Source: Octopus vulgaris
Lineage: Eukaryota
Assembly: GCA_951406725.2 (NCBI GenBank)
Contig: OX597815.1
Span: 71,300,001-71,364,000, forward strand
DNA: 64,000 nt
Direction of reading: 5' to 3'
Shown: piece after piece, positions 5,675 through 62,819 of the stretch
Layout: every line of letters begins with the position of its first letter
Position numbering within the stretch: the first letter of the stretch is position 1
The notes under the pieces: model-generated
What the model was told of the DNA's origin: nothing
Seen by the model: the letters and a program-made list of their open reading frames with translations, nothing else
Databases searched by the model: none
Translations under genes and position numbers: made by a program

Positions 5675-5891
5675 TAATTCTTTCTATTATAGGCACAAGC
5701 CCTGAAATTTCGGGGGAGGGGACTAGTCGATTACATCGACCCTAATGTTTCACTGGTACTTAATTTATCGTCCCCGAAAGGATGAAAGGCAAAGTCAATC
5801 TTAGCGGAATTTGAATTCAGATCGTGCAGACGCACGAAATGTCGCTAAACATTTTGCCCGACGTGTTAACGATTCTGCCAGCTCGCCGCCC
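5675..5891 (-). mobile_element. SINE family C (head GGCGGCGAGCTGGCAGAA)
   Basis: Reverse complement of the family C head and core (GCCTTTCATCCTTTCGGGG) seen at 50497; carries the alternative tail CTTGTGCCTATAATAGAAAGAATTATT. Confidence 0.85.
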
Positions 5892-6048: not shown

Positions 6049-6101
6049 ACCCTCACTAACATTGAGGGAATTTGGTACGCAGAAATTGTGGAAGCTCGTT
6101 A

Positions 6102-6141
<40 letters not shown>

Positions 6142-6622
6142 TAGTATATATATCTTTATATATATAAAACTGAGAATGTGTGTCTGTCTGTCTGTCTGTG
6201 TGTTTCCCTAAAACTTGAGAACTACACAACCAATTTCATTCAAATTTTACACATGCCTTACTTAGGGTCCATGGGCAAAAAAAATGTTCAACTTCTTGCC
6301 TAGAGCGAGCCCATAGCAATATCATATCTTCTCCACTATTTCAGTATTACGTGTTAAAAGTGAAACAAAAATATTTCTCTATTTTATGTCAGATGCTTTC
6401 ACTTTAACAATAAAAATAATAATAACAATTGAATTATATGTAGTAAGTAATAATTAAAATCAAACTAAAGTATAATATAATCGTAACATACAAAAGTAAA
6501 AATAGCAATTGGTATAAAATTGCATCAATGATTTGAACTTGAATAAGTGGTTTCACTTGAATGGGAATAAATCAAAAATAAAATTAGCGTGCAGAAATGG
6601 AATAGTCCTACAATTCCAGTCT

Positions 6623-8515
6623 TCATTGACTTGGTTAGTTAATTTTTGTGTGAACTGTTAAATTGGAAAAAAAGTTGAATCGCGAGAGGCGCTTGCCGCC
6701 ACGTGTTGGAACCTTATTATAGAAGGTGCGTCGACCCTCAAGTCATGGAGACTTACGCGGGGGGCGCCGCAACGAAAAGTGATGAGCCTCTTATAGTAAG
6801 AGAAGTGTTTTTTAGAAAAGAACAATTATTGGACTATGAAAAATTCATCAAAGGGAGGGTGACAGCGTAAAGCTGGTCCCACCTGCTGAAACGATAGAAG
6901 ACAAAAATAATAAGACTATAACGTACAGGACGCAAGACAGGATTACATAAAAATTGGTGAGAGTAACGATAGAAGAAATTGAGAAATGTCTGGGGGACAT
7001 TATGAAAAAGGCAACGTACGTGAACAGAGGAAAGAAATATGGTACGGTGGAGGTGAGATGCGCAACAAAAGAAGTTGCGGCCTCGTTAGCTTCCACGGTA
7101 CTAAAAGCTGAAAACTTCATCATGTGGCCTACATATAAAGGAAAAAGAGGGGTACGGGTAAAGATCCCAAAGGTGCCGCCAGAAATAAAAACAGAAATGT
7201 TGGTAACAGCTATTCTAGGGTCAGCGAAGGAGGAAATAGAAATAGGGTCGATCAAGGAGACCAATGTTGTGAACTGGAAGGGATTCGGAGTGGAGATGTG
7301 GCTGATGGCCACAATAGAAGACATAGAAAGGTTTCCCTTCCAAATTGAACTAGAAAATGAGAGAACAATGGCCGTAATTGTGGAGGGGAGAAAGCCGAAC
7401 TGCTACTTGTGTGGGTCAAGAGGACACATAAGAAAGGAATGTCAGCTATATGAATTCACAGCGGAGAAGGAAATGGAGCGAAAAAAGACACAAAGTGGAG
7501 AGACAACGGAAGAAAACAAAAAAGAGAATGAAAAAAAACACGAAGGAAAGAACAGCGAAAGCAAGGAAAAGGAAATAACGGTGAAACAACAAGAGAAAGG
7601 AAGTAACAACACACTGAAGGAAAATGAAATCAAAGGGAAGAAATTAATAGAAAAGGAACAAAATTCACAGGGCAAAGAAGTAATAGAGAAAGAACCAAAA
7701 CAGAATCAAGAGAAAGAAAAGGAAAGTACACTAAAGGAAAGAGAAAAAAACAGGGAATAAACAAGAGAAGGAACAGAAGCAAGAGAAAGGAAAAGATGGC
7801 ACACGAAAAGAAAAAGAAACAACAGGAAAGGAACATAAGGCACAGGGTAGAGAAACGACAGACAAAGAGCCAAAAAGACAAGAGAAGGAAAAAGAAAGAA
7901 GAGAAAACAAAAAGAGAGAAAGAGAGAAACCGAGAGAGGAGAGCAAAGAGGAAATAAGTCCTAAGAGGAAGACTAGAGAGAACAGGCGATACAAATTCTA
8001 TGGAACGTTGGTCTATCACAGGCATTATGAGGAGATGGAAAATGTGATAAACGAAACAGATGGATATACATGGGTCAGGACGGGCACCGAATGGAAAGAA
8101 ACGGGTGCACTAGTTCACGAGGACGGCGCCGATGCATTACTAGGCAGCCGGTAAGAACGTGTTAAAACACATGAAATGCCGACTTGTAAGGTGGCCAAGA
8201 ACAATGGAGAACTATGAAGAATTGGTCGAGGTAATGGAAAATATTTTTTTGAAAACTTTATTGGTGAAAAGAATTTTAAATTCTACAAAATGTTGAAGTG
8301 ATAATACACTCTGAAAATTTTTTTGAAATATATGTAAAATGATTTTGAATTTTATTGTGAAATGTGTCTTTGAGAAAAAAATGACGAAATGTAACCACTC
8401 GATTTCGGGGATCGAGTGGGCATTACACCACATTGTACAAATTCCATAACTCATTATTTTATTTTTTCCCGATTGTATTGTCCCCTCTATGTTTCCCCTT
8501 GTGGGTAGGAATAAA
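6623..8515 (+). mobile_element. ORF1(gag)-only non-LTR retroelement related to the adjacent Tx1-type LINE
   Basis: Flanked by the 13-bp direct repeat ACAATTCCAGTCT (6610-6622, 8516-8528). Its ORF1 is homologous to the neighbour's ORF1, no EN/RT is present, and the last ~45 nt are nearly identical to 13571-13617. Confidence 0.8.
6745..8153 (+). pseudogene. Disrupted ORF1/gag-like protein with one CCHC zinc knuckle and a long E/K-rich tract
   Basis: Probable start METYAG at 6745, then a frameshift and a stop. ORF 6954-7760 contains TYVNRGKKYGTVEVR and CYLCGSRGHIRKEC. The 3' end is approximate. Confidence 0.75.
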
Positions 8516-8760
8516 ACAATTCCAGTCTGTTATATATTGTAAGTTGTTCTATTTCCACTGTTATATTGAAGTACTGTTGATTTTGTCTATATTGTCTGTT
8601 TTTGTGCAATAATTATTATCAGCCTTCGCGCGAGGGCTTCGTGTTAGAGTTCCCCCCCTCCGTGGGGGGAAAATTACTGTTTATTTGCACATACATTTGA
8701 GGCTTGCGAAGCCGAAACAATTTTGTTGTATTGAAAGGCTTGTTAAGCCAGTCTTCGGAG

Positions 8761-10023
8761 ATGGACTCCGATATCTCCAGTTCACCAGTGACAAGTGACG
8801 AGAGTTCACCGGCGGTGTCGCCGAGAAAAGAAGAAACCCCAGCGCCAGCTAGGAAGTTTTCCGAAGTGGCCGGGAAAAAAAAAAAATAAATACAGAGAAC
8901 CTGGAAAAATACGCAGACTGTTTTAAAAAGGAGGGCACAGAAGTAACGGTGTTTACGAATGTCCAAAAACAAGAAGAAATTGAAAAGAAAAGAATCATAT
9001 ACAAAACGTTCAATATTACAAGCAAGTCTATTCAAAGAATAGAGGAAAAAGAGATCGAAAATTGCCTAAAGCCGATATGGAATAAGATTACTTACATTAA
9101 TCGCGGGAAAAAATACGGTACAGTGGAAGTGAGATTTGCAACGGAAGAAATAGCCAAAAAGCTATCTACGGAACCTATGAAAGCAGAGAATATTGTTCTC
9201 CTCCCTCTGTATAGAGGCAAAAGAACCTCAAGAATAACAATCAACAATATTCCCCCAGAAGCGGACGCCACATGTCTGGTGGCAGCAGTTATGGCAGGCC
9301 TGGAGGACAAAATAAACATCCTCCAGGCTACAGTAGAAGAGGAGGAAAGCTGGAAAGGGCAGCGTATCTCAATGGTCATTCAGGCAGAGGTACAAACCCT
9401 CGAAGAAATACCAGAGACACTGAAAATCAGTGAGGAGGAAAGAGTCGTGGTCTTCGTGGAGGGCAGAAAGCCGAGGTGCTTCGGCTGCGGTAAGAAAGGG
9501 CATGTGAGGGCAGAGTGCCAACCCAAACCGCAGGAAGCAGCTCAACCAGAAAAAAAAAATGGAAGAAGTGTCACCAGAAACAACGCCAGACAGCCCAGAA
9601 GGGACAACTGAAGGTGAGGAGGTGACAGATGCAACAGAATCAGCGGCGGAGGTAACAGAAGAAGCAAAAAGCGAGGGGTGGTCAAAAATCACTAGGAAAA
9701 AAAGAAAAACTGAAACCACCCCTCCGAAAGTGAGCCAAAAGAAAAAAAAAGAAACATTGAACTCATTTATGGCCATTAAGGCCTCAAATAATAGACTCAT
9801 TAATGTGTTGGCAGCTATGGCCAAAGTAGAAAAAAATTTTTTTTTAATGATTTCATACTGTACAGAATAGGCCGGAGGGATTACGGACGGATGAAGTCCG
9901 AATTTTTTCATGACGTGGGCCCTCTCAGAATCGACATATATATACGAAGGCCTGCGTCAGACTCCCCCACGAGTCCGGGAAAAAGACAAAAATGAAGAAG
10001 AAAAAGTCGAACCACTGATATAA
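8761..10023 (+). pseudogene. Tx1-type ORF1 (CCHC zinc knuckle), frameshifted
   Basis: ORF pieces 8704-8889, 8949-9611 (TYINRGKKYGTVEVRF; CFGCGKKGHVRAEC) and 9559-9870. Breaks fall at A runs. Confidence 0.8.
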
Positions 10024-10031
10024 GGTAAGTC

Positions 10032-13000
10032 ATGGATTACATTTATGTTGGTTGTTTAAATGTGCGCGGCCTGGGATCAAACTGGAAGCAAGGTCGCTTC
10101 CTTAATGATATCAGGTCGCATAATTTGGATGTTATTGTTGCTACAGAAACCCGGTTAGAGGGGCCAAGAGGTCTACTCCCGCTGTTTGGCGGCTACGAGA
10201 GTTTTTTTCTCTCCGGCCAGTCCTACCGGCGGGGGTGGGGTGTTGGTCCTATAAAAAAGAAACCGGGTTTTTGAGAAAAAGTTAATTTTTTCACACCCAG
10301 AAGGTAGGCTGGTCGTCATGGATTTGACGTTCAGTAACGGTAAAGTTATCAGACTGGTTGCAATTTACGCACCCAACCAAAAAGGGCAAAGTGATTATTT
10401 TCGAGAACTGGATAACTTTCTTGGTACTTCGCATTCATTAGTTGTGCTAGGAGACTTTAACACAATTTGCAAAGCGGTTGTAGATTGTGTTGGCTTGCGT
10501 CCAGATAGAAAAGGTAACATTGGCTTCCTGGAACTGCTAAGCCGCTTTGAGCTAGCAGATCCTTATAGGTTGGAATTTCCGAACGCTCCATTGTGGACAT
10601 GGTCAAGCAGCGACGGATCTTCCAGGTCATACATAGATAGGATACTAATTAGAAAAGTAGACAGAAAAATAGCTAAGTGTCCACAGTTTTACCTGGTCAG
10701 CTACAGTGATCATAAAATGGTCACCTGTAAGCTTGACATAGATATGGTTAAAAATAGAGGCTCCGGTTATTGGAAACTTAATACGTCCCTTTTGGCGATT
10801 AAGGAGTACAGAGACCGGATTAGGACTATAATTCAGAGGGCGCTATCTGGTGCCATCATTAATAACAAATGGTGGTATGCCCTCAAGTGAGCCATCAAAT
10901 TCGATTCTATTAGATATAGCATAGGATTAGTGGCTAGAGAGGCTGGGAGGGAATCTACTCTAGTTAAGGAATTAGAGGAAGCCTTGAAAACTGGCTCTGC
11001 GGCTCAGGTGACGGCCAAGAGACTGGCGTTAAACCAGCACCTCGAGGCCAAACACATGGGCTGCATTGTCAGGGCTAGGATCCGAGCAATGGATTGTGAA
11101 GGAATCAACGCCGTGAGATGGGCTCGAGTGGTGGAAGCTCAGCGTGGTAACGACGTCACAATTCGATCTATGACGAACCAACGAGGTGAGTTGATAAACG
11201 AGCCCGAGGAGATGTGTGAGGCTTTTCAGGAGCACTTCGCTCAGCTTTTCGGTGGAGGCGGCGGACTGGATAAGAGGAGGGCCTTTACGGACCTCCTCGA
11301 CAGGCTGCCGCACCTATCGGGGTGAGATGCGGAGGGCTGTGAAGGGCCAATCACGCCTGGGGAGGTGGTTGAGGCGATGGCGGACTGCGGCGCGGGCAAG
11401 GCGCCGGGTTTAGATGGTCTACCCTATGAGTTATATAAGAGTATGCCAGACTTGTTCGGGCACCTACTGGCGGTGGTCTATGCGAACTGGCAGCAGAACG
11501 GGTTCATACCCAGATCTGTGCGCCGGGGAGTGGTGACACTCGTCAGATAGGACCCGAGCAAGGGGGAGTGCATTGATAATTTCAGGCCCATCACTCTGCT
11601 AAACACAAAGTTGAAGATTTTGGCCAAAGTGTTATCGAAAAAATTGGCGCGTGTCGCGGATGGTCTGATCGGGGAGGCACAGACATGTGCCGTTCCCGGC
11701 AGAACCATTCAGGATAATCTCCATCTTATGCGGTACACTATAGAGGGGTTTAATAGTGATTCTGGCAAGGGTGGGGCACTGGTCCATTTAGACCAATCTA
11801 AAGCATTCGATAGGGTCGACCATCGCTACCTGGTGTCTGCCCTGGCACAGTTCGGACTGGGCCTTGGCTTCCTCAGGTGGATTATCCAAATTAACATTGA
11901 CTCGGTAGTTCGGGTAAACGGCTTCTTGTCGAAGCCGTTCAACATCAAGCGCTCGGTTCGTCAAGGGTGTCCGCTTTTGAGCCATTACTGCGAAAACTGA
12001 GCGGCATCCCGAGACAGCCAGGTTGTGGAAAATCGGTGTCAGCGTACGCGGATGACATCACCATCATCGTAACCGAAATGGATCACCTACAGAGGGTAGG
12101 CAAGGCCATAGAGGTTTACGAGACGGTGACAGGAGCAAAGGTTAATCATGAAAAGTCAGTCGGCTTGCAACTCGGCACCTGGAGAGGCAAGTCGATGCCT
12201 CCTAACAGCGTCGTGGGACGTTGGACGGAGGGTCCGATTAAGTTGCTAGGGGTTTGGTTCGGTCCAGACCTCCAAATAGAGAAGAATTGGGGCGAGGTAA
12301 CGAGCAGGATGGCTGCAGTAGCCAAGATCAGGTCTTGGCGGTGGCTATCCCTGAAAGGGAGGGCGGAGGTAGCCAATGTGTTTATCGCATCGGTTATCAC
12401 CTACCGCCTTTCCGTCGTTCCTTGCCCTGATTCGTGGTTGAACAAGTTGGAAAGACAGCTCTTCTACTTCTTGTGGAAGGGCGGGAAACCACTTGTGAAA
12501 CGCTCTACTTGCTGTCAACAACCGTTAAAGGGTGGGCTAGAGATGCCTTGGCTGATGATGCGCAGACATGCGCTGAGGTTAAGACATCTGTGGCTCTACC
12601 TGGATGGTGAACGGGTGTGGTCTCCGCTAGCAAAACTGATGTTTCCCAAGTTCACTAGTTTCGGTGGATGGGAAACCTGGCTGAATCGTAGATCGAAACT
12701 GGGCACATGGTACACGGAGTGTCGCAAGGCTCTCCTGCTTTTCCGTCGCTCGGGCAACGCCTGCGGTGGGGGTTCCACCACATTCTTCTATAGAGGGTTG
12801 GTAGAGGTTGAATGTGAAGATACCTTGGGGGAAACCCTAGGTCTCGACGATAATCAGCTGGCCAGTCTGTTCCGACGTACGTTCGAGCCGAAGACCCTGG
12901 ACAACTTCCAGAAGTCTCTGGCGTGGCAATGTTACAGAGGAGCTCTAGCTGTTCGGGATAAACTCGCAAGGCACGGTGGCCAAGACAGTCCGATATGTCC

Positions 13001-13376
13001 AAGATGCTAGCGGGATAGGGAAACCGTCCCGTACGCTATTGTTCATTGTTCGGTCGTGTCCGAGGTGTGGGTTTATGCCGAACAGCTGTTGTCAAGCACA
13101 CAAAGAGTACAGCTGTCGACTGAGTCTATTATAAAAATTGACCCACCAGATTTCCTCGCGAAAGAAGGTAAGAATTGTTTTCTCGTTGTAGTAGCAATTG
13201 CGAAAGAGGTGATTTGGAAGACTAGAATGAAAGGTTTACGGTCAGGCAAGTTCATCTCCGGCCCTGGATTGATGAATTACTTCATATTTCACCTAAAAAG
13301 GAAGATAGGGCTGGAGAGAAAATGCCTGACTAAGAGAACGATGGAAGGATGTAGCACGAAAGTTGCGAGTGGATGA
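10032..13376 (+). pseudogene. Tx1/L1 ORF2: APE endonuclease and reverse transcriptase, with several stops and frameshifts
   Basis: Motifs LNVRGL, TETR, GDFN, IDRI, SDH, YWKLNTSLL, KAPGLDG, LDQSKAFDRVDH, SVRQGCPL, AYADDIT and CPRC*..HC. In-frame stops at 10888, 11323, 11548 and 13008. Confidence 0.92.
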
Positions 13377-15044
13377 TACCACATAAATGTAAAACTAGAT
13401 GAAACCAAAGTATCAGTGGGGAGGCGGGGCTCGTGGGGTCCGAGCTAAACCCGCTCCCACTCCATCCGTAATGTCTTCCGGTCTGTTCTCCATTCGATTT
13501 ATATTTGTATTTTATTGAATTTTTAAACTCATCTTTGTGTAACCCCATTCGTGTATCTGACCCCACATCAGATTGTATTGTCCCCTCTATGTTCGCCCCT
13601 TGTGGGTAATAATAAAACCATTCCAGTCTGTTATATATTTTGAGTATTGTTATCACTAGCGATATCAAGATATAACTTTGTATTTTGCATTTTATGTGTA
13701 GATGTATATATATAGATGTACATGTAATATGTACACATATATATACACATATATACATGCACTAGCACTATGACCCGGCAACGACGGGTCTTTAATGCTA
13801 GTAATATATATAGTATTTATGTATCTCATGAATGCAATGTTAAAAAGCTTGAAAGAAATATATACGTAGTGAGAATTAAAAAGAAAGAGAACAATAATAT
13901 TAATCAACTCAGTCTTCTACTTATTTCGGTTGTCTCTACAGGACATAACCTAAATAATGTTTTGTTCTGAACGCAACGAAACATAATTCTTAGTGCATTT
14001 AGTGAATTAATGATAAATAAATCACTAAATAATTATATAAGAATATGTGTAGATATTATACATGCATTATTAACACATGTCTGTTAGCTGAAACATGAAA
14101 TGCATTCGCTGTGGAATTTTGTCACAGAGAAAAATTTTGACCCTCGCTTCTTTGTGTACTTGCACTAAGTTAATTCCATCTTGGAATGCCTGAACACACT
14201 CCAACAAAAATGTATTGCTTGCAGAGTTCTAATTATTAAGTTCCAGTTGAGCTCGATCTGACCGATGTAGTATCTGTAACTGTGGAGGGAAAATCACACC
14301 GAAACACAATGTCTGGTAGTCCGCTGACATTATTTGAAGCACGACTTGATGTGTTTTTGACTCCATGTCTATAGAGATTTACACGTTCTAGTATATCACA
14401 GTGTGTTAACAAAATAAATGTGCACATCTTTATGTTGATTCTCATCATTTCGAGTGCTTATACTAAAAGGAGCTTGTAGAAAAATAAACTCTATGGAAAT
14501 AATATAATTCAGAGACGCCATCTGTATGAAGAGATGATAGTTATCAGTGTTAACATGGATCATTAACATTTTAAAATATCTCCTCTAAAATGTTCATTCT
14601 TCTTATATATCTTGTGTTTTTTCTCTCCTGCCTTCTAATTTATTTCTAATAAACGGCTCAATACATTAGATTTGAGAACACTAACTTATAACCATGATAA
14701 CTAATCTATATCTCGTACCGTTATACTAACCTTTAGGAACCATCGCTTATTCTTAAAACTATTAATGTCTTTCGGATACGTTAAATCCTTAAAATGCCTC
14801 GACAGTTTGCTAACAATAACCGATCTTCTGATACACAACTGTGAATCAATTTTTGTTATTGTTGTTTTATTTCATTTTCACCTTATTTAATTTTTTCCAT
14901 ATCTATTTTCCTTTTTGTTTATATTTATTTTTTGCATTTTGTAATGTATATCTGTTGCCTTCGCTAAATGTTCATCAATCCACTTTCGCACTATGCACGC
15001 AGGTGAAGAATCTCCACGCGATACACACACACGCACACACACAT

Positions 15045-20580: not shown

Positions 20581-21225
20581 ATGCAATGAACTGACAGAAT
20601 CGTTAGCATGCCGAGCGAAATACTTAGCGGTATTTCGCCCGTCGCTACTTTCTGAGTTCAAATTGCGCCGAGGTCGACTTTGCCTTTCATCTTTTCGGGG
20701 TCAATTAAATAAGTACCAGTTACGCACTGGGGTCGATATAATCGACTTAATCCGTTTGTCTGTCCTTGTTTGTCCTCTTTGTGTTTAGCCCCTTGTGGGT
20801 AGTAAAGAAATAGGTATTTCGTCTGCCGCTACATTCTGAGTTCAAATTCCGCCGAGGTCGACTTGGCCTTTCATCCTTTCGGGGTCGATTAAATAAGTAC
20901 CAGGTACGCACTGGAGTCGAAATAATCGACTTAATCCGTTTTGTCTGTCCTTGTTTATTCTCTCTGTGTTTAGCCCCTTGTGGGTAGTAAAGAAATAGGT
21001 ATTTCGTCCATCATCACGTTCTGAGTTCAAATTCCGCTGAGGTCGTCTTTACTTTTCATTCTTTTGAGATCGATTAAAATAAGTACCAGATGAGTACTGG
21101 AGCCGTTGTAATCAACTTTCCCCTTCCCCCAAGTTGCTGCCTTTGTGCCAAAATTTGAAACCAATATTAGTTGTACTTGAAGGCGGCGAGCCGGCAGAAT
21201 CGTTAGCAAGCCAGGCGAAATGCTT
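20581..21225 (+). mobile_element. SINE family C trimer (~185-bp unit) followed by another head
   Basis: TTCTGAGTTCAAATT..GAGGTCG recurs at ~20650, ~20834 and ~21019. Flanking repeat AATATTAGTTGTAC at 20563-20576 and 21163-21176. Confidence 0.85.
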
Positions 21226-22344
21226 AATTGATTAACCGAATGACCAATCAATTCATTATTTAGATGGTTATATTTAGTTGGTCAACTAGTTATAAAAATA
21301 ACAAAGAAGTGAAATAGGACTAGTGCATGTGTTTATCATTGGCATCATTTAATGACCCTCCCGAGATACAACAAACCTGTCACATTTTTCTAACACAAAA
21401 TTTCGTTTTACACACGCAAGAATAACCATTATTCATTAAAAAAAAAAAAAAAAACTGGCGGAATCTATTGAACGCAGATGAAAAATTCTAAAATATTCAA
21501 ATACTATCTCACTACATAGATAATCTACATCTCAAAGTGCTCTACTCTCAGAATCAGCCATTAATAATTAAATTCAGAAGAAAGCTATAATGCTATAAAG
21601 TTATTTTTATATATTTGTATATTATCACTTTGAAAATTTAATTTTTTTCTAGTTCACTTAGCTGCACAAAAGAAATATACTCATTATATCTACAAAATAT
21701 TGCTAATATCATTATAGCTAACTTCTGAATTTAATTATTAATGCTTGATTCTGAAGGTAGAGCTCTTTCAAGTGTATATTTTGTCATAATAGAGCAAGTA
21801 TTGTAGTTTACTCGAATTTTCTATTTGTCTCGGAAATTCTAGAATTTCAAAAATGTTCTGGCAACGCCACCGTATACAAAAACTAATAGCGCTCTTATAA
21901 TTCTTGTTCTTACCATCTGCTGACGAAGGTAAGTGGTGTACGTTTGCGCGCGCATGTGTGTGTGTGGCCTACGCAGTATAAATGGAAACGCTTAAAGTTT
22001 AAACATTACTCTATAGACTGGAAAAAATTAACCTTATTCGATTTGGGGATTTTATCAGAGGTGTCTATATCGTTTTTACCAATACCGGGGATATTAGCAA
22101 CCAATCTGTTTCTATACTTATCAAATCCATTAGCTATTAATTTGCACACCATAAGTGTTTAACATTTTATTTGATATCAGCGGTTTGTTAACGGAAATCT
22201 CAGTACACAGTGCCAAGGTATGAAATATTATATGTAACCGACGTAGTATAAATACAAACACTGCAAAAATAACCATGTGTGTATGTGTGTGTGTATATAC
22301 ATGTGTGTATGTGTGTGTGCTGTGATTTATTGTATATATCTAAC

Positions 22345-25300
22345 TTCATCAAACCCAAGCCCGCAGGTGGGACTACCCACTATATACCAGACCACCACAG
22401 CAAACAGACACAGGATGGACACCGCCGGCAACAACGTACACCTCACCTCGATACTCCTACTGAACATCAGAGGACTGCAAACACTCAGTAACAGGACAAA
22501 GATCTCGTTCCTGAGAGACTTTGTTGCATGCAATCAAGCCTTATGCATAGCACTTACAGAAACGCACCTGAAACCGGACATAGCAGATGCGGAGTTACAC
22601 ATACCACAGTATGCTGTACTACGGACCGACAGGAAAGAAAGGAGTCATGGAGGTGTTGCTATGTACATCCGTGAGGACCTTACACCCCAGGTCCTCTTGT
22701 CATACTCAAACTCGGTGTGTGACACACTAATTGTACATATTAGGCAACTTGATGTAGTTGTGTGTGCTACATATCGCCCTCCAGATGCACCAAGCCATGT
22801 GGGCAAGTTTGAAGACTGCCTTATAAAAATAGAAGAAATTCTAACCACATTAGAACAACACATAGGTGTGCTTCTTATGGGAGACTTCAATCTGCCCAAT
22901 GTCAGATGGCCCGAGGGCCTTTCTCTCCCAGGAATGACAAGATGTGAACGAGGACAGGCGAGGTCCCTCCTGAACCTCATCAACACCCTGTACATGGAGC
23001 AGGTAATACTCCAACCAACCAGGGCAGGTAACACACTGGATCTCTGCTTCACAAATGACATGGATCTCATCCATAATGTGAAAGTGACACCGACACTACT
23101 CTCGGATCACAACATGATAGAGCTGACCATGTACGGGCCAAAAAGAGAGCACGGACATGCAGCCTACAAGAAACCCTCAAAATCTTTCCAGCTTGAACTA
23201 CCATAAGGCAAACTGGAAACAAATTGAGAAAGAGATCCTCAAACAAAACTGGCCTAAATGTCTCTCCTCGCCAGACATCGACGTGAAACTTCAACAATTC
23301 ATGTCTGTAATGCAAGCCATATGCTACAAATGTGTCCCAGAGAGAAAGGCCGCTGTACACAAGAACAAAATCCCCAGAGAGAGGAAAATTTTAATGAGAC
23401 GGCGTACGAAATTTTCAAATCGCCTAAACAAACAGATTGAAAGCAGTGAAAAGTCCCGCCTAAAAATGAAACTGTTGGAAATCGAAAAATGTCTGCAACT
23501 CTCCCATGAAAAAGAAAGAGCAGACAAAGAAGCCTGGGCTATAGAAAACATAAAATCTAACCCCAGAGCTTTCTACAGGTATGCCAAAGAAACAGCTACA
23601 GTGCACTGTAGAATAGGGCCACTCCTCGAAAAGGATGGCACACTTACAGGAAAACCAATGAGGGTAAGTGAAATACTGAATGAGCAATTCAAGAGTGTTT
23701 TCACTCCACCCCTTGGGCATCTCCAAATCACCAATCCAACTGACTTTTTTACCACTGCAGATATAAAATCAGAGGCGGCGACGATAGATTACATCGATAT
23801 AAAGGAAGACGATGTAACCAAGGCTATAGATGAAATGAAAACAGACTCAGCTACTGGCCCCGATGGATTCCCGGCAATCCTCCTAAAAGCATGTAAGAGA
23901 GTCCTAGCAAGACCACTGCAGTTCCTCTTTCAGAGCTTCCTTGCAGCTGGCAAACTTCCAGGAAAACTGAAGGAAGGTAAAATATGCCCCATTCATAAAG
24001 GAGGTAGCAGAGCGGAAGCCAAGAACTATAGACCTATCTCTCTGACCTCACACATCAGCAAGGTCATGGAACGAATAGTCAGAAGGAAGCTGATCACCTT
24101 CCTTGAAGAGAATGACTTGCTGCCCGACACCCAACATGGTTTCCGACCAGGGAGAAGCTGTTTAACTCAGCTCCTACAACACTATGACTGGGTGCTGAAA
24201 CGGCTGCTCAACCACTCAAATGTGGAAGTGATATATCTCGACTTTGCAAAGGCCTTTGATAAAGTCGATCATGGAATGATATGTCACAAACTGCGTGATC
24301 TCAACATAATTGGAAAACTGGGAGAATGGCTTCATGACTTTCTGAAGGATAGAAGTCAGGTGGTAGTAGCCAATGGGGCCACCTCCATTAACACACAAAT
24401 AGTGAGCGGTGTCCCGCAGGGCACTGTTCTGGGACCACTACTGTTCATAATGGCCCTCTCAGACATGCCCTCAGCCACGCAGAGAGCCACGATCACAAGT
24501 TATGCAGATGATACAAAAGTTTCACAGGCAATACAGAACCCTGAGGACACTAAACACCTGCAATGTGAGCTGGACGAAATATACAAGTGGGCTGAAAAGA
24601 ATAGCATGCAGTTCAATGCTGGAAAGTTTCAAGCTTTATACTATCAGCATGCAAAACTGAATGCAATACCCAATGAATACACTGGACCCGGAGGGATTGC
24701 AATCCCAGAGGCACAATCAGTGCGTGACCTGGGTATTCACATGAGTGATGACGCGACCTTTCATGTACATGTTGCTAAACTGACAATGAAATGTAGACGG
24801 CTGGCTGGATGGATTCTTAGAACCTTTAGAACAAGAGAACAAGAAACCATGATGGTCCTCTGGAAGACACTTGTCCTAAGCCACTTTGACTATTGCTCTC
24901 AGCTATGGTCACCATCCAGTGTCAAGTTGATCACAGAACTTGAGGCGATCCAACGAAGCTACACAAAGAAGATAGCCTCTATGCAGAATGTAAGCTACTG
25001 GGAAAGACTCAAGAGATTAAAATTATATTCCCTGGAGCGTAGGCGGGAAAGATATGCCATAATATACATCTGGAAGATCCTGGAGGGAAGTGTCCTGAAC
25101 TTTGGCATCGAGAGTTACGCAAATGCCAGAACTGGGCGCCACTGCGTGGTGCCTAGGACTCCAAACCTGCCATCAAGATGTAGGACAAGATTCTGTGATA
25201 GCCTGGGCTTCCGAGGCCCACAGCTCTTCAATATCCTCCCGAAGAACCTGAGAGACCTGCATGGGGTGGATACAGATGTCTTTAAAATGAAGCTGGATCT

Positions 25301-25500
25301 CTTCCTGTCAGGTGTCCCAGATGAACCAACTTCACGGCAGGAGGGGCAGATGAGGGCAGCTGCATCGAACTCTCTCATGCACCAAATAGCAGTTGCTAGA
25401 AAGCCTCCATGAAGTGAAACCAAGTAGCAACACCAAATGGCGGTGCCCCAGCATGGCCACAGCTCATAAGCTGAAACTAGAATCAATCAATCAATCAATC
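22345..25500 (+). mobile_element. CR1-group (CR1/L2-like) LINE, probably 5'-truncated, with an (AATC)5 tail
   Basis: EN-RT ORF, short 3' UTR with a stem-loop, and tandem AATC tail at 25481-25500. Confidence 0.9.
22415..25412 (+). pseudogene. APE endonuclease-reverse transcriptase (ORF2), ~1000 codons with one frameshift
   Basis: LNIRGL, TETHL, YRPP, GDFN, TLDL and SDHN in ORF 22277-23206; GPDG, YRPISL, QHGFR, LDFAKAFDKV, GVPQGTVLGP, YADD and LERRRER in ORF 23157-25412. The shift lies between 23127 and 23206. Confidence 0.92.
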
Positions 25501-25849: not shown

Positions 25850-25980
25850 CATACATACATACATACATACATAGATGTATGCATACATATATACATACAT
25901 ACATACATACATACATACATACATACATACATGCATACATACATACATACATACTTACTTACATGCGTACATAAATACAT

Positions 25981-27717
25981 AGCTGTAGTGTCTAAAGTAA
26001 ATAAACAGCGTAGAAACCTTGTGACAGTATGGCTTGACTATAAGAAGGCATTCGACTCTATCCTTCATTCCTGGCTGTTAAAGTACCTACATCTGGCAAA
26101 AGTACTTACCACCCTAATTGCTGTTATAGAGAGACTCACAAAGACATGGACAACAATTCACACCCTTCCAACTGAGAACAGAATAATTGTTTCATATACT
26201 ATAGGCATTTCAAAGAGAATATTCCAGGGAGATAGTATTTTGTACTTCTTTTCATTTTGGCACTGAATCAACTATGGTTCCAAATGCAGAAAACAAATGG
26301 CTACAAACTACGATCTTCAACTGCTAGAAATGTCAATATAACACATAATTTCTTTGTAGATGATCTCAAGATTTATTCTAAAAGTGTTAACAATGCCAAA
26401 AAAACAACTGGAATTAGCAAGATTTTCAGCTGATACAGGCATGGAAATTAGCCAAAAGAAATGTTCAGATTTGGATATAGAACGAGGAAAGTCAGTCCTC
26501 CAAACCCAAAACCTGTGCATCAACGGGCTCTCTATCTGCCCCATTCCACACAAAGAATATTACAAGTACCTAGGCATAGATGAAAATTTATCATATGGAG
26601 GCACTGTGAATAAAGATAGCATGACCCGAGAATATTACACCAGACTTAGGAAAATATGCCAATCGGAACTCTCCTTTTACAACAAAACAATATCCCACAA
26701 TGCATTTGCAGTACCAGTGCTGATCCCAACATTTGGGATACTTAATTGGTCTGTAGAGGAAATCCACTCTATAGATATCAAAAGCCGCAAAATCCTGACA
26801 ACAACTGGGAACTTTCACAGAAGCAGTGATGTTGTCAAGCTTTACCTGAGAAGAAATGAAGGTGGTAGAGGCCTGAGATCAGTGCAGACGGCCTTCGAAT
26901 GCTGTATGGTATCACTCAGGCAGCACCTGCTGAACAATAGCAGCAGAAATAAATATATAAATGCAGTGCTGAAAAGTGAGCAACATTGTACAAGCTGGCA
27001 GCGAGCTCCTCAAGAAGCACTCTCTTCTTGGGGCTATTACATCAGAGAAGACCTGGATGGAAAGCCTCAGCATACAAAAATAAAAACTATGCATGGGTAT
27101 GTTACCCGAAAGCTTGAAGAAGACAGTAGAATTGACACGAAGCGTAGCCTCTCTCGGACACAAGACCTCTACATCACATCACACTTTGAATGTTTTGCGT
27201 TTGCAGTCAAAGAACAGGAGATAGCCACAAAGTACCTGGTGAATAAGAGAGACAGTGACGCTCTTGTAATCTCAAGGTACAACCGCGTGTGTAAGCTATG
27301 TCATATTCCAGTGGAAGACATCATGCATGTGATTAGCAGCTGTCCTAAAATGTCGTGGTACTACCTCCCTGTGCTGTACGATGTTGTTGCTAAAACAATT
27401 TACAATGTCATCCGCAAAAAAACCTACTCTGAAATAAACTTAGAAATTCCCTCTGTTATGAACACCAACTCAAAAAATACTGGTGGAATATTCCCATCAA
27501 AGCTTCTGTCAAATGTAAACATAGCAGGCCGGATATGGTTGTTTGGAAAAGAGGGGCAAAGGTATGTATCGTCATAGAGGTCAGCTGCCCTACAGATATA
27601 AATATCTGTTTGAAAATCTAAGAAAAAGAGGATATATATGGACAACTGCTTCGAAACCTCTAGCTTCTGGATCCAGACTATGAATTGGCAAGGAATCTTG
27701 AAATAAAATTGAATAAT
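25981..27717 (+). mobile_element. 5'-truncated, decayed R4/Dong-clade LINE (RT, zinc motif, restriction-like endonuclease)
   Basis: WLDYKKAFDSI, IFQGDS, FVDDLKIY, YKYLG, LYLRRNEGGRGL, CKLC..H....C and RPDMVVW..IEVSCP. Flanked on both sides by (TACA)n. Confidence 0.85.
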
Positions 27718-27850: not shown

Positions 27851-27898
27851 CATACGCATACATACATACACACAGTCGAATCAAATTGTTTTAAATTA

Positions 27899-28805
27899 TC
27901 TATATACTAATAAAAGTGAAGTTGAATCTTGCTTACTTGCAATGTTACACACCCAAACTGGCGCATAATGGGAAAATACTATAAATTAAGTTGCCTCTGA
28001 AATGTTAATACGAACAGAATAAAACAAGTTTCGCATAAATCACACCAGTAGTTATGGAGACATTCGGGATTTGGGAGTATAAATACTCAAAACAGTGCAT
28101 AATGGGAAAATATTCCGAATATAACTTCATCCAGAAAGGGAAGAAACTCTAACCTTTCTATTAGAAACAGTGGCTTGACAACGAAAAGATACGATTCGTT
28201 TTTCACAGTAAATGTTTCTATTTTTACTTTTGTTAAACACAATATTTTAATCATTTAGAAATATTTTCAAGTTAATGTTTTTTTTTAAAAAAAGTAAGTC
28301 GTTTGTACATATATAAATATATTTTAGCTTTCTCACAATATTATGTTTTTTTTTATTTATTTTCAAGTGACTATTATTGCAAAAATTTCTTTTGGCATAT
28401 TAAAAAATATTTTTAAGTGAAAATGACTTTAAAAATACGGTAAATATTTCGTAAATCGGCCGTTCGTAATCTCAGTGAGAAATATTTTTTTCCATAGGTT
28501 TTTTTTTTTAGTGCATTCAACATATCTCAAGTCCAAAGATTTGACTGCCATCTCAAGCAAGCCCTGCTACCACGTAACTGCTATTTGCGATAAAGGACCC
28601 GAAATACTTATTACGTGGTAGCAGAGTGTGCAAGAAATAGTAGCCAAATCTTTCCTTTTCTAGAGAAAGGAGCCGTTTACTCGTGATTCCGATGTCACAT
28701 TCGTTGAAAGCATGCGAAATAACCTGGAAAAGAAAAAAAACAACGAAACTAAACTCCATATTGGGAAACTCAAACCATCCCGGTGACCCAAAGGGTCACG
28801 AGTTG

Positions 28806-28810
<5 letters not shown>
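27899..28810 (+). mobile_element. Non-autonomous Helitron-like element
   Basis: 5' A|TCTATATACTAATAAAAG; 3' hairpin GTGACCC-AAA-GGGTCAC (28783-28799) then CTAA|T (fits CTRR). Confidence 0.65.
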
Positions 28811-33255: not shown

Positions 33256-33636
33256 TCTCTATATATAAACGGCAGTTTGTCTGTGCGTTTTCTGTGTGTC
33301 TGTTTTCTCGTACCCTCACTCTGACCACGGCTTTCAACCGATTCTGATGAAACTTGACACACACATAGCCCAATGTCATAATTCAAAACTAACGCATCGA
33401 AAATTTTGAAAAGTTCCCCCAGTTCTGAAAAAAATCGATAAATTCGACATGGGGTCGAGAATCAGAAACCCAAACCACAGACCGTCTAGGGGACGCAACT
33501 CCACCTTTTTTAACTCTCAAAAAAAATTTACCATCATTTTTTTTCCATTTTTTTGTTATTTTTTGGCTATAACTCTCTAAAAATGCTTTATAGTTATTTC
33601 CCTTACAAACCTGAGCAACGCCGGGCGATACTGCTA

Positions 33637-33637
<1 letters not shown>
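33256..33637 (+). mobile_element. Non-autonomous Helitron-like element (~380 bp) in (AT)n
   Basis: A|TCTCTATATATAAA ... CCTGAGCAACGCCGGG-N-CTAG|T, with (AT)n on both flanks. Confidence 0.8.
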
Positions 33638-33689
<52 letters not shown>

Positions 33690-50392: not shown

Positions 50393-50496
50393 CCATCGTT
50401 ACCAAAACTGCGTAACTGCCAAGCAAGCTACTGAACCATACAGCCATGCATGCACCTACACTGTAATGTTTTTGTTAACAGATATACGCATAACAA

Positions 50497-50729
50497 TAGG
50501 GTGGCGAGCTGGCAGAAACGTTAGCGCGCCGGGCGAAATGCGTAGCCGTATTTCGTCTGCCGTTACGTTCTGAGTTCAAATTCCGCCGAGGTCGACTTTG
50601 CCTTTCATCCTTTCGTGGTCGATAAATAAAGTACCAGTTTCGCACTGGGGTCGATATAATCGACTTAATCCGTTTGTCTGTCCTTGTTTGTCCCTTCTAT
50701 GTTTAGCCCCTTGTGGGTAGAAAAGAAAT
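50497..50729 (+). mobile_element. SINE family C monomer with a Tx1-like tail and a perfect 17-bp TSD
   Basis: AGATATACGCATAACAA at 50480-50496 and 50730-50746. Confidence 0.92.
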
Positions 50730-51156
50730 AGATATACGCATAACAAGAGGAATTGAATCCAGTCGGGTTTCATGGAATGTCCTTACTAAATATTGCTGAA
50801 CTTGAACGCATTCACTCTACAGCGATATGATTTGGTTGTTATCCAACCAAAAACATTATTTACTATTATTCACTTTAGATATTTTCTTCGGTCACTGCTA
50901 TTTCTGGATAGTTTAACGCAATGTTGCCGGTTATCTCTTGTTAAGCTGTCATCATCAGCTGATACGTTTTCAATGGTTTATGGTTATCATCAAAGAAGTA
51001 TAGAAGTTACCTTGTGATCGCTTGTTTCTTCCACATACGAAGCAGTCTTGGTTGAAATCGAGAAGCTTGTTATTCTTCATTGAAATTCGATATTTTTAAT
51101 CTAAATCTTTTTAAAGATTTCAGTGCTGTTAAGAGATCGGCTACTAATGTTCTACG

Positions 51157-54756: not shown

Positions 54757-55131
54757 TCCTTTCTACTGGATGCACGAGACCTCAAATTTGAGGGGAGGGA
54801 TTAAGTCGATTACATCGACCCCAGTACATAACTGATATTAATTTTATCGGCCCTGAAAGGATGAAAGTCGACCTCGGTGGAATTTGAACTCAAAAACCAA
54901 ACATCAGACGAAATACCTATTTCTTTACTACCTAAACACAGAGAGGACAAACAAGGACAGATAAACGGATTAAGTTGATTATATCGACCCCAGTGCGTAA
55001 CTGGTACTTATTTAATCTACCCCGAAAGGCAAAGTCTACCTCGGCGGAATTTGAACTCAGAACGTAACGGCAGACGAAATACGGCTACGCATTTCGCCCG
55101 GCGTGCTAACGTTTCTGCCAGCTCGCCGCCT
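54757..55131 (-). mobile_element. SINE family C dimer
   Basis: Same unit junction (GTAGTAAAGAAATAGGTATTTCGTC) as the trimer at 20581. Confidence 0.85.
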
Positions 55132-60736: not shown

Positions 60737-62819
60737 GCAAGCACACATGCACGCGCGTACAGCTGTATACGCATACATATAGAAAGAGTGAGAGAGGGAA
60801 AGGAAGAGGAGAACATTACAATTTATCAATTGAACACAGGTGACATAAACACTTTCCTTCTTAGAGAAATATGTTCATATACAAAAGCAGAGAGAAAATA
60901 GACACGAGGGAGGAATTGAGAAAACGAGAGAAAAATTAAATCGTTTGACGTAAGATAAGTCAGCGCTGAAACAGCATCGCCACATAAGCAGTGCCAAAAT
61001 GGCTGTGCCAGAACGCCTCGTATTCTCTAGCCTTGAATATATTTGAGAGGATGTTATTTCCAGCAACTATGATGCCTTGCCAGAATAATGGTTTCTTTTT
61101 TTCGCACAGTGTCAGCAATTTTTGAAGGGAAGGGTGGGTCGATACCATTTATTTCAGTATTTGGCTGTACTTTATTGTATCGACCCTAAAGTGATAAAAG
61201 GCGGAGTTGACTCTGGCCGGATTTCAACTCAAAAGGTCGAAAGAAATAGTGGAAAGAAATAGTGGGAGACATTTTGTCCGACGCTCAAACGATTTTAATC
61301 GCTCGCCTTTCCAAAATTATGATTCCTAATATAGGCACAAGACCTTCAACAATGTTTCTGATTTAGTCACAAGGCTAGCGCTTTTGAGGGGAAGGGTTAG
61401 TTGAAAGAATTGACTTGACTGGTACTTTATTTAATCGATTTAGTAAGAATGGAAGATAAAGTTCACTTCGGAGGGATTTCAACACAGAATGTAAAGCCGG
61501 AAGAAATACCGGAAACCATTTTGTTCTGCCAGATCGCCTTGATAATGCTTCTATTGTATGTTGGTGTGAATAATTTCCTTATCATCAAAGTGATTTCATT
61601 CCGTGAGCATTGAATCTGAAAATATTGCTTGATGTATTTTTATTTTATATTTGCATGTTGGTCATTTTATACTTGTATGTTACCATTTTCTCACTCATCA
61701 AATCGCTCTACGGCATTTTCCCTCAATTATTAAATCAATATGTACGGTGAAATATTGACACTTTATTTAAAATCTATATCTTTTCATCTTTTTAATCAGG
61801 AAGGAAGGGCAATGCCCATGATCCTTTACAGGGCATTTGAGACTGGTATGACGGAGGACGGTATCCTCAAACCAGAGATCTGGTTCAAATGCTTATAACA
61901 GAATGGACTCTGCTTAAGGCTCCCTAGGTGCCAAGCTGTTTCGGAAATATATAAAGGTTACTTACGAAACTTTCCCTTTTCGCATAGTAAAACCCCTCCG
62001 TCTCCATTATTTAAACTTACATATTCTTTCGTTTATAAATCAGTTCGAAGTGGCAGAGTGATTAGCACACCGGGCAAAACTCTTAGCGACATTTATTACT
62101 TCTGATTACGTTCTGAGTTCAAATTTGACCGAAAGCGATTTTTATCTTTTCGGGGTCTAAAAAATGTGTACTAGTTGAGCACTGGGGTCGATGTAATCGA
62201 CTCATCCTCATCCCACCGAAGTTGCTGGCATCATGCCAAAATTTGAAACCATTTAAATCATATTCAGTTATCAGTTTATAATTGAAAACCAATCTAACTA
62301 TTATGAAGACCGCTAAGATTTCCTCGTTGTATTGTCTATAACAAAGAATTCAGAAAGTTCAAGGCACATCCACATCAAGCTTAAAAACATTCTTCCACAG
62401 CGCAGGCATGACTATGTAGTTAAGAAGCTCGCTTTGCAGCCATGTTGTTTTGGGTTCAGTACCACTGCACAAGTATCTTCTATTTACACTTTGAGTCAGT
62501 GAATTTGTGAGTGAATTTGGCAGACGGAAACTGAGGAAGTCCGTCGAGTATGTGCGCGTATATATATGTATGTGTGTGTGCATGTGCGTGTATGTATGTG
62601 TGTGTGTTTGTACTGTCGTCATCGCTTGACAACCGGTGTTGGTTTGTTTACGTCTCTATAACTTAGTATACAAAAAAATTAAATAAAATAAAAATAAGTA
62701 CTGGGAGGTTTAGTCGGACAAATCAGCCCCAGTTTACTCAGCAACTCTAAATATCTTTTAACTCAGCTTATCTAGCTATGCCGTGTAGCACTATGTTCTC
62801 TTTTGTGAGAAGTTATTCT

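Follow-up and report, generated by a model that had tools for sequence, protein, structure and literature searches.

Non-autonomous LINEs that retain ORF1 have been described in three clades, namely HeT-A in Jockey, HAL1 in L1 and Ag-Sponge in CR1, and the passages that treat them in Kojima 2018 (PMC5786205) do not mention Tx1. HAL1 (half-L1) of mammals is a non-autonomous element of the L1 group that encodes ORF1 only (PMC5753468, PMC5786205). In Drosophila, about 40% of telomeric families are described as ORF1-only, and non-telomeric Jockey elements are said to lose ORF2 rarely, in the sections of a survey that deal with these families (PMC13534243). Tx1 families have been reported in piggyBac, Mariner, Harbinger and LTR hosts (Kojima 2015, PMC4494074), examples from the pertinent sections of that paper being Xenopus Tx1 in Tx1D, crocodilian Tx1-Mar and SINEU in Mariner-N4, and Tx1-9_AMi in Harbingers. 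Tandem SINEU-3 copies sandwich a TSD, and a target preference is recognised there when more than 20% of flanks share a sequence (PMC4494074). Tails shared between SINEs and LINEs are treated as a standard sign of trans-mobilisation in the relevant part of PMC3747384. Our search of the literature, which extended to neither Repbase nor subscription journals, found no Helitron-targeting Tx1, no non-autonomous Tx1 with an ORF1, no octopus pair of SINE and Tx1 sharing a tail, and no Tx1-type ORF1-only family. Retention of ORF1 alone is a known strategy; what appears to be new is the Tx1-type clade and the Helitron-like target.

The locus described here lies in a 64-kb stretch of octopus DNA (the window), which has the character of animal DNA, with many microsatellites and SINE-like repeats. 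It consists of a 1,894-bp unit (body 6623-8516), bracketed by a TSD of 12-13 bp and followed by a LINE (Table 1). The unit has an ORF1 without EN/RT, a LINE-type 3' end and its own TSD, which are traits of an ORF1-present non-autonomous LINE. Like HAL1, it is of the L1 group, encodes ORF1 only and is non-autonomous. However, it differs from HAL1 in that its ORF1 combines a CCHC knuckle with predicted RRM-like domains, in its cephalopod host, in being known here from one copy, and in sharing a sequence tail and an insertion site with a LINE. Judged by its sequence, the unit is not HAL1 in the strict sense, which implies an origin from mammalian L1, as its named homologues come from Octopus. HeT-A and the other ORF1-only telomeric elements of Drosophila are similar to the unit in being ORF1-only and in standing head-to-tail beside an ORF2-bearing element, but they belong to the Jockey clade, form telomeric arrays and average ~8 kb, whereas the unit is 1.9 kb long, TSD-flanked and interstitial (PMC13534243). 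The unit is not HeT-A, given that the EN and RT of its partner match human L1 ORF2p and that it is TSD-flanked inside another repeat. Ag-Sponge is likewise an ORF1-present bipartite non-autonomous LINE, but of the CR1 clade (PMC5786205). Tx1-Mar and SINEU resemble the present arrangement in pairing a Tx1-type LINE with a non-autonomous partner in a non-autonomous DNA transposon, where tandem copies sandwich a TSD; in contrast, the partner here encodes an ORF1 and is not snRNA-derived, the host is Helitron-like, and the apparent target preference stems from 2/2 insertions at one locus (PMC4494074).

Table 1. Features of the locus and of tail-sharing repeats, in positions of the 64-kb window.
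Feature	Positions	Strand	Remarks
Host, 5' part	6153..6622	+	TC start after A; (GTCT)n tract; ends in target site
Left TSD of ORF1-only element	6611..6622	+	12-mer match; 13 bp counting 6610
5' UTR of ORF1-only element	6623..6744	+	no match to LINE 5' UTR
ORF1, broken, ~500 codons	6745..8253	+	N-terminal motif, core, knuckle, linker, C-terminal domain; end from homologues
3' UTR without ORF2 remnant	8254..8470	+	predicted hairpin ~8395-8419 (z -3.7)
Terminal tail	8471..8516	+	common to LINE (43/47) and SINE-like copies; invariant 13-mer 8495-8507
Shared target copy	8517..8538	+	right TSD of ORF1-only unit (8517-8528) and left TSD of LINE (8517-8538)
Full-length decayed L1/Tx1-type (likely) LINE	8539..13617	+	ORF1 ~8758-10020; ORF2 ~10032-13390; 3' UTR with hairpin and shared tail
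Right TSD of LINE	13618..13639	+	21/22 identical to 8517-8538
Host, 3' part	13640..13801	+	hairpin 13772-13790 (z -5.0); CTAG 13798-13801, then T
SINE-like copies with unit/LINE tail	20588-20815, 20813-21000, 50506-50731	+	tail match
SINE-like copy, tail partly missing	55124-54915	-	tail match

An initial annotation of this DNA had described a ~1.9-kb unit with its own 5' region, a single ORF1 and its own TSD. This description holds: the unit occupies 6623-8516 and has a 5' UTR unlike that of the LINE, and the flanking duplication of 12-13 bp is unique in the window. The duplicated 12-mer, CAATTCCAGTCT, occurs within the 64-kb window only at positions 6611-6622 and 8517-8528 (the per-position chance of a given 12-mer being ~6e-8), and the TSD grows to 13 bp if the matching A just before it (6610) is counted. 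The right-hand copy extends to a 22-mer (8517-8538) that recurs with one mismatch (21/22) at 13618-13639, behind the 5.1-kb LINE. The ORF1-only unit and the LINE accordingly used the same nick, i.e. 2/2 insertions, at one locus. The simplest reading is that one target was hit twice at the same nick, which left a TSD of 12-13 bp around the unit and one of 22 bp around the LINE, and either order of insertion yields the observed pattern. The partner LINE may have a preference for this target.

Helitrons begin with a 5' TC, end in a 3' hairpin followed by CTRR, and insert between A and T. With both insertions removed, the host measures ~642 bp, and we take this ~640-bp sequence to be a putative non-autonomous Helitron on the strength of its ends, which follow all of these rules. 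No second copy of the host was found within the 64-kb window. Other Helitron-like ends were seen at 27898-28810, ~33620-33640 (minus strand) and ~55650; a comparison of their interiors with the host at 6153-13801 showed no similarity. We also considered the sequence from 13640 onward as the start of a third element, and rejected this because its alignment to the LINE 5' UTR was like that of shuffles (p 0.53).

The neighbouring LINE carries a CCHC knuckle in its ORF1, and its ORF2 contains an AP endonuclease, an RT and a weak zf-RVT (Pfam Exo_endo_phos, RVT_1). Both its EN and its RT have PDB matches to human L1 ORF2p (E 1e-6 and 3e-5), and these domains place it in the L1 group. Several stops and frameshifts show that the element is decayed. 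A CCHC-bearing ORF1 is a feature of Tx1. The more specific 'Tx1' assignment is likely, based on the knuckle-bearing ORF1 and on the abundance of L1-Tx1 elements in coleoids, as stated in the relevant part of PMC8967140.

The ORF1 of the unit starts at the ATG at 6745, and its N-terminus resembles that of database protein P0002. It is laid out as an N-terminal motif, two predicted RRM-like alpha/beta domains, a CCHC knuckle (~7398-7445), a K/E-rich linker and a C-terminal domain (~7987-8250); all four peptides quoted from the two ORF1s in the initial annotation are present in the sequence. The frame is not open in this copy, as it is broken by a frameshift near 6855, a stop at 6948-6950 and frameshifts near 7745 and near 8140. 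With about three frameshifts and one stop, the ORF1 of this copy is dead. The suggestion that the unit supplies its own RNA-binding protein therefore fails for this copy, because such a protein cannot come from a broken ORF1. An HMM built from the C-termini of five homologues gave the C-terminal domain 52 bits, compared to 11 bits for the best of 400 shuffles. The last ORF1 segment aligns weakly to homologues (6 bits; E 0.028), so that its end near 8253 is an estimate.

Pfam searches of the frames 6951-7757 and 7735-8151 returned either zf-CCHC alone or no match. The predicted model of the ORF1 core had a mean pLDDT of 61.6, and its top Foldseek match was the tandem RRM12 of IMP3 at a weak E of 5e-3, with ferredoxin-like folds at Z ~8. 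The fold search with the core gave nothing at E<=0.001, and since all fold matches were weaker than E 0.001, the RRM-like designation is a prediction only. In the Atlas comparison, CCHC clusters scored 0.90-0.93; RNA-binding clusters of the ZCCHC3 type scored below 0.9 and are leads only. L1 ORF1p was absent among 14 PDB sequence matches, and Rfam gave a single weak chance match over 6100-7000.

Comparison of the two window ORF1s upheld the earlier description of them as homologous yet clearly diverged, since their cores are 43% identical (70/162 residues, E 3e-44). Identity at codon positions 1, 2 and 3 was 52, 68 and 38%, respectively, over 162 codons, and 41 of the 70 identical residues are encoded by different codons. 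The low third-position identity and the differing codons argue for an old split of the unit and LINE ORF1s. The codon-position pattern (0.52/0.68/0.38) probably reflects past constraint on ORF1, and does not give the timing of that constraint relative to the loss of ORF2. A quick ORF1 tree was built with 110 rows, comprising 108 of 158 proteins and the two window ORF1s (six rows being under half filled). In this tree the unit grouped with seven relatives (SH-aLRT 95) within a 49-row group (SH-aLRT 97), and the LINE ORF1 grouped with P0010 and P0011 (SH-aLRT 99). The unit ORF1 thus belongs to a separate Octopus ORF1 lineage. Given these separate, supported clades, the unit did not arise by deletion within the neighbour's family; the view that it does not derive from a recent deletion there is borne out both by these clades and by the 38% identity at third codon positions.

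All named homologues of both window ORF1s are Octopus proteins, and a search for ORF1 relatives gave 1020 representatives at E<=0.001. Nine database proteins match the unit ORF1 at 53-77%, eight of them on at least seven different contigs. Over the ORF1 core, 8 of 158 proteins reach 64-86% identity, several of them across 50-80 residues only. P0001 and P0016 have open reading through the C-terminal domain. P0003 and P0006 shift frame in the same A-rich part of the linker as the window copy, a switch that may be due either to recurrent slippage or to inheritance from one broken master. P0004 and P0008, on two different contigs, have a common N-terminal piece joined to this type of ORF1; an origin of this piece as the C-terminal domain of an ORF1 lying upstream was not supported by the C-domain HMM, with which it scored below 5 bits. 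Fusion to EN/RT was found in 0/11 relatives and in none of the 24 scanned of 150 listed (0/24), with LINE-type controls included, and among longer relatives (search range 794-2265 aa) the one match was a WD40 gene-model chimera. We dropped such fusion as a test of autonomy because LINE-type relatives are unfused as well, which makes its absence uninformative. An ORF1 profile matched 2 of 209 candidates in metagenome contigs by the knuckle only, and these were rejected; it matched none of 121 candidates in viral contigs (0/121). Twenty of the 24 sequencing runs listed contain part of 6400-8700, with a best share of 0.47 and no RNA run among those listed, and we did not count them as evidence.

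The initial annotation had also reported that the unit lacks EN/RT. We confirmed this by tblastn of LINE ORF2 pieces against the two flanking parts of the unit (6623-6950 and 7961-8516), which gave a best E of 0.05 and hence no EN/RT remnant, together with the Pfam searches of the inner frames. As ORF1 reaches the C-terminal domain of its family and no piece of ORF2 follows, the loss of ORF2 appears clean at both ends.

The region after ORF1 is ~265 nt long in the unit, compared to a 3' UTR of ~230 nt in the LINE, and a hairpin is predicted in each. The last ~45 nt had been noted as nearly identical to those of the LINE, and indeed the tail at 8471-8516 matches the LINE at 13571-13617 in 43 of 47 positions (91%, E 1.6e-13). 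DNA similarity between the two elements ends abruptly ~47 nt from the terminus, and homology of their 3' UTRs outside the tail was rejected, as the alignment was within chance (p 0.16). Because the upstream alignment is at the level of chance, the tail is the sole DNA conserved between the two UTRs, as would be expected for a recognition signal. Neither covariation (0/4 pairs) nor folding better than shuffles was found for the tail, and its pattern had 0 matches in metagenome contigs.

The 13-mer CCCCTTGTGGGTA within the tail has five occurrences in the window, two of them in the unit and the LINE and the other three in SINE-like copies. These three copies match the tail at 83-88%, and its presence on them suggests that the tail is a portable signal. 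One of them, at 50506, is flanked by an unrelated TSD of 17 bp of its own (50480-50496 and 50730-50746), so the tail is not always paired with this target. Either targeting is loose, for which SINEU-1 and SINEU-2 are a precedent in the account of PMC4494074, or several LINE families use the same tail. Many Tx1-type families of octopus may simply carry this tail.

We favor the explanation, with a probability of about 0.65, that the unit is a dead copy of an ORF1-only non-autonomous family, whose RNA would have been packaged by the family's own ORF1 protein and reverse-transcribed by the ORF2 protein of the partner at the partner's preferred site. The unit has its own TSD, an end-to-end ORF1, no ORF2 remnant, the shared tail, and the LINE's nick in a Helitron-like element. 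From these features we infer both that the unit belonged to a family and that it was mobilised in trans by the enzymes of the partner LINE. An ancestor in the separate ORF1 lineage would have dropped ORF2 and retained its 5' end, ORF1 and 3' UTR, after which the ORF1 protein made by active copies would have packaged their RNA. The partner ORF2 protein would then bind the ~45-nt tail, nick just before CAATTCCAGTCT and prime reverse transcription, and a second element landing at the same nick would produce the tandem pair. Such a nick could be used again because a TSD leaves the target site intact.

Two other origins of the unit were weighed against this one. The unit could have come from an autonomous sister LINE family, with this ORF1, an ORF2, and the same tail and target, of which a single copy lost its ORF2 once, during or after insertion. 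Such an event would account for the shared tail and target without trans-mobilisation, the ORF1 radiation is large, and the 49-row lineage (SH-aLRT 97) probably includes autonomous families; moreover, the junction of ORF1 to tail is known from this locus alone. However, a random loss must have spared the whole of ORF1 and yet left no trace of ORF2 at either end, for which the chance of a product of this size is roughly 1 in 10 (an estimate, not a computed value), and multi-copy families are likelier to be sampled than singletons. We regard a sister-family deletion as unlikely, if far from negligible. The abrupt end of DNA similarity ~47 nt from the terminus would also fit a one-off chimera, in which reverse transcription started on a tail of the LINE/SINE type and jumped to the ORF1 RNA of another family, and exchange of tails is visible among the SINE-like copies of the window, which bear at least three different ones. 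A jump of this kind would have to land just past ORF1, but ~220 nt of UTR-like sequence with a hairpin of its own separates ORF1 from the tail, and we consider a template switch highly improbable.

If the unit does represent an ORF1-only family, this Tx1-type example from a mollusc would extend the list of clades beyond L1, Jockey and CR1, which are those named in the corresponding passages of PMC5786205. The sections of the Drosophila survey that concern ORF2 loss tie it to telomere-specialised elements (PMC13534243), and an interstitial case with a shared target would test clustering as the cause. We tentatively extend the favored explanation to a broader proposal, which we consider possible though on balance doubtful: Octopus may harbor a Helitron-targeting Tx1-type LINE, an old ORF1-only clade and a SINE subfamily that share one 45-nt tail and one RT, the ORF1-only clade persisting as site-specific insertion stacks it by autonomous partners. 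Site-specific clustering might then lead to loss of ORF2 in general, which would not be a peculiarity of telomeres. Three kinds of element ending in one tail (LINE, ORF1-only and SINE) would moreover offer a compact system for mapping recognition by a Tx1-type RT.

Several other features of the window were observed. The same SINE body occurs with at least two other tails, at ~5725-5884 (minus strand), 54798-54896 (minus strand), 62047-62260 (plus strand) and 20998-21160 (plus strand), and the differing tails on one body suggest tail exchange among partner LINEs, as far as can be read from these copies. Three or four partly truncated SINE-like units form a head-to-tail run at 20588-21230. A tRNA origin of the SINE heads was not indicated by ARAGORN, which found 0 tRNA genes. 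A second LINE of another type lies at ~22250-25500, with long open frames of 319 and 761 aa, a distantly related RT and an (AATC)n tail, and part of another RT-like element, with an open frame of 405 aa at 26360-27577, lies at ~25980-27680. By eye, the segment 16999-17845 has long terminal inverted repeats, and it resembles a remnant of the Mariner type.
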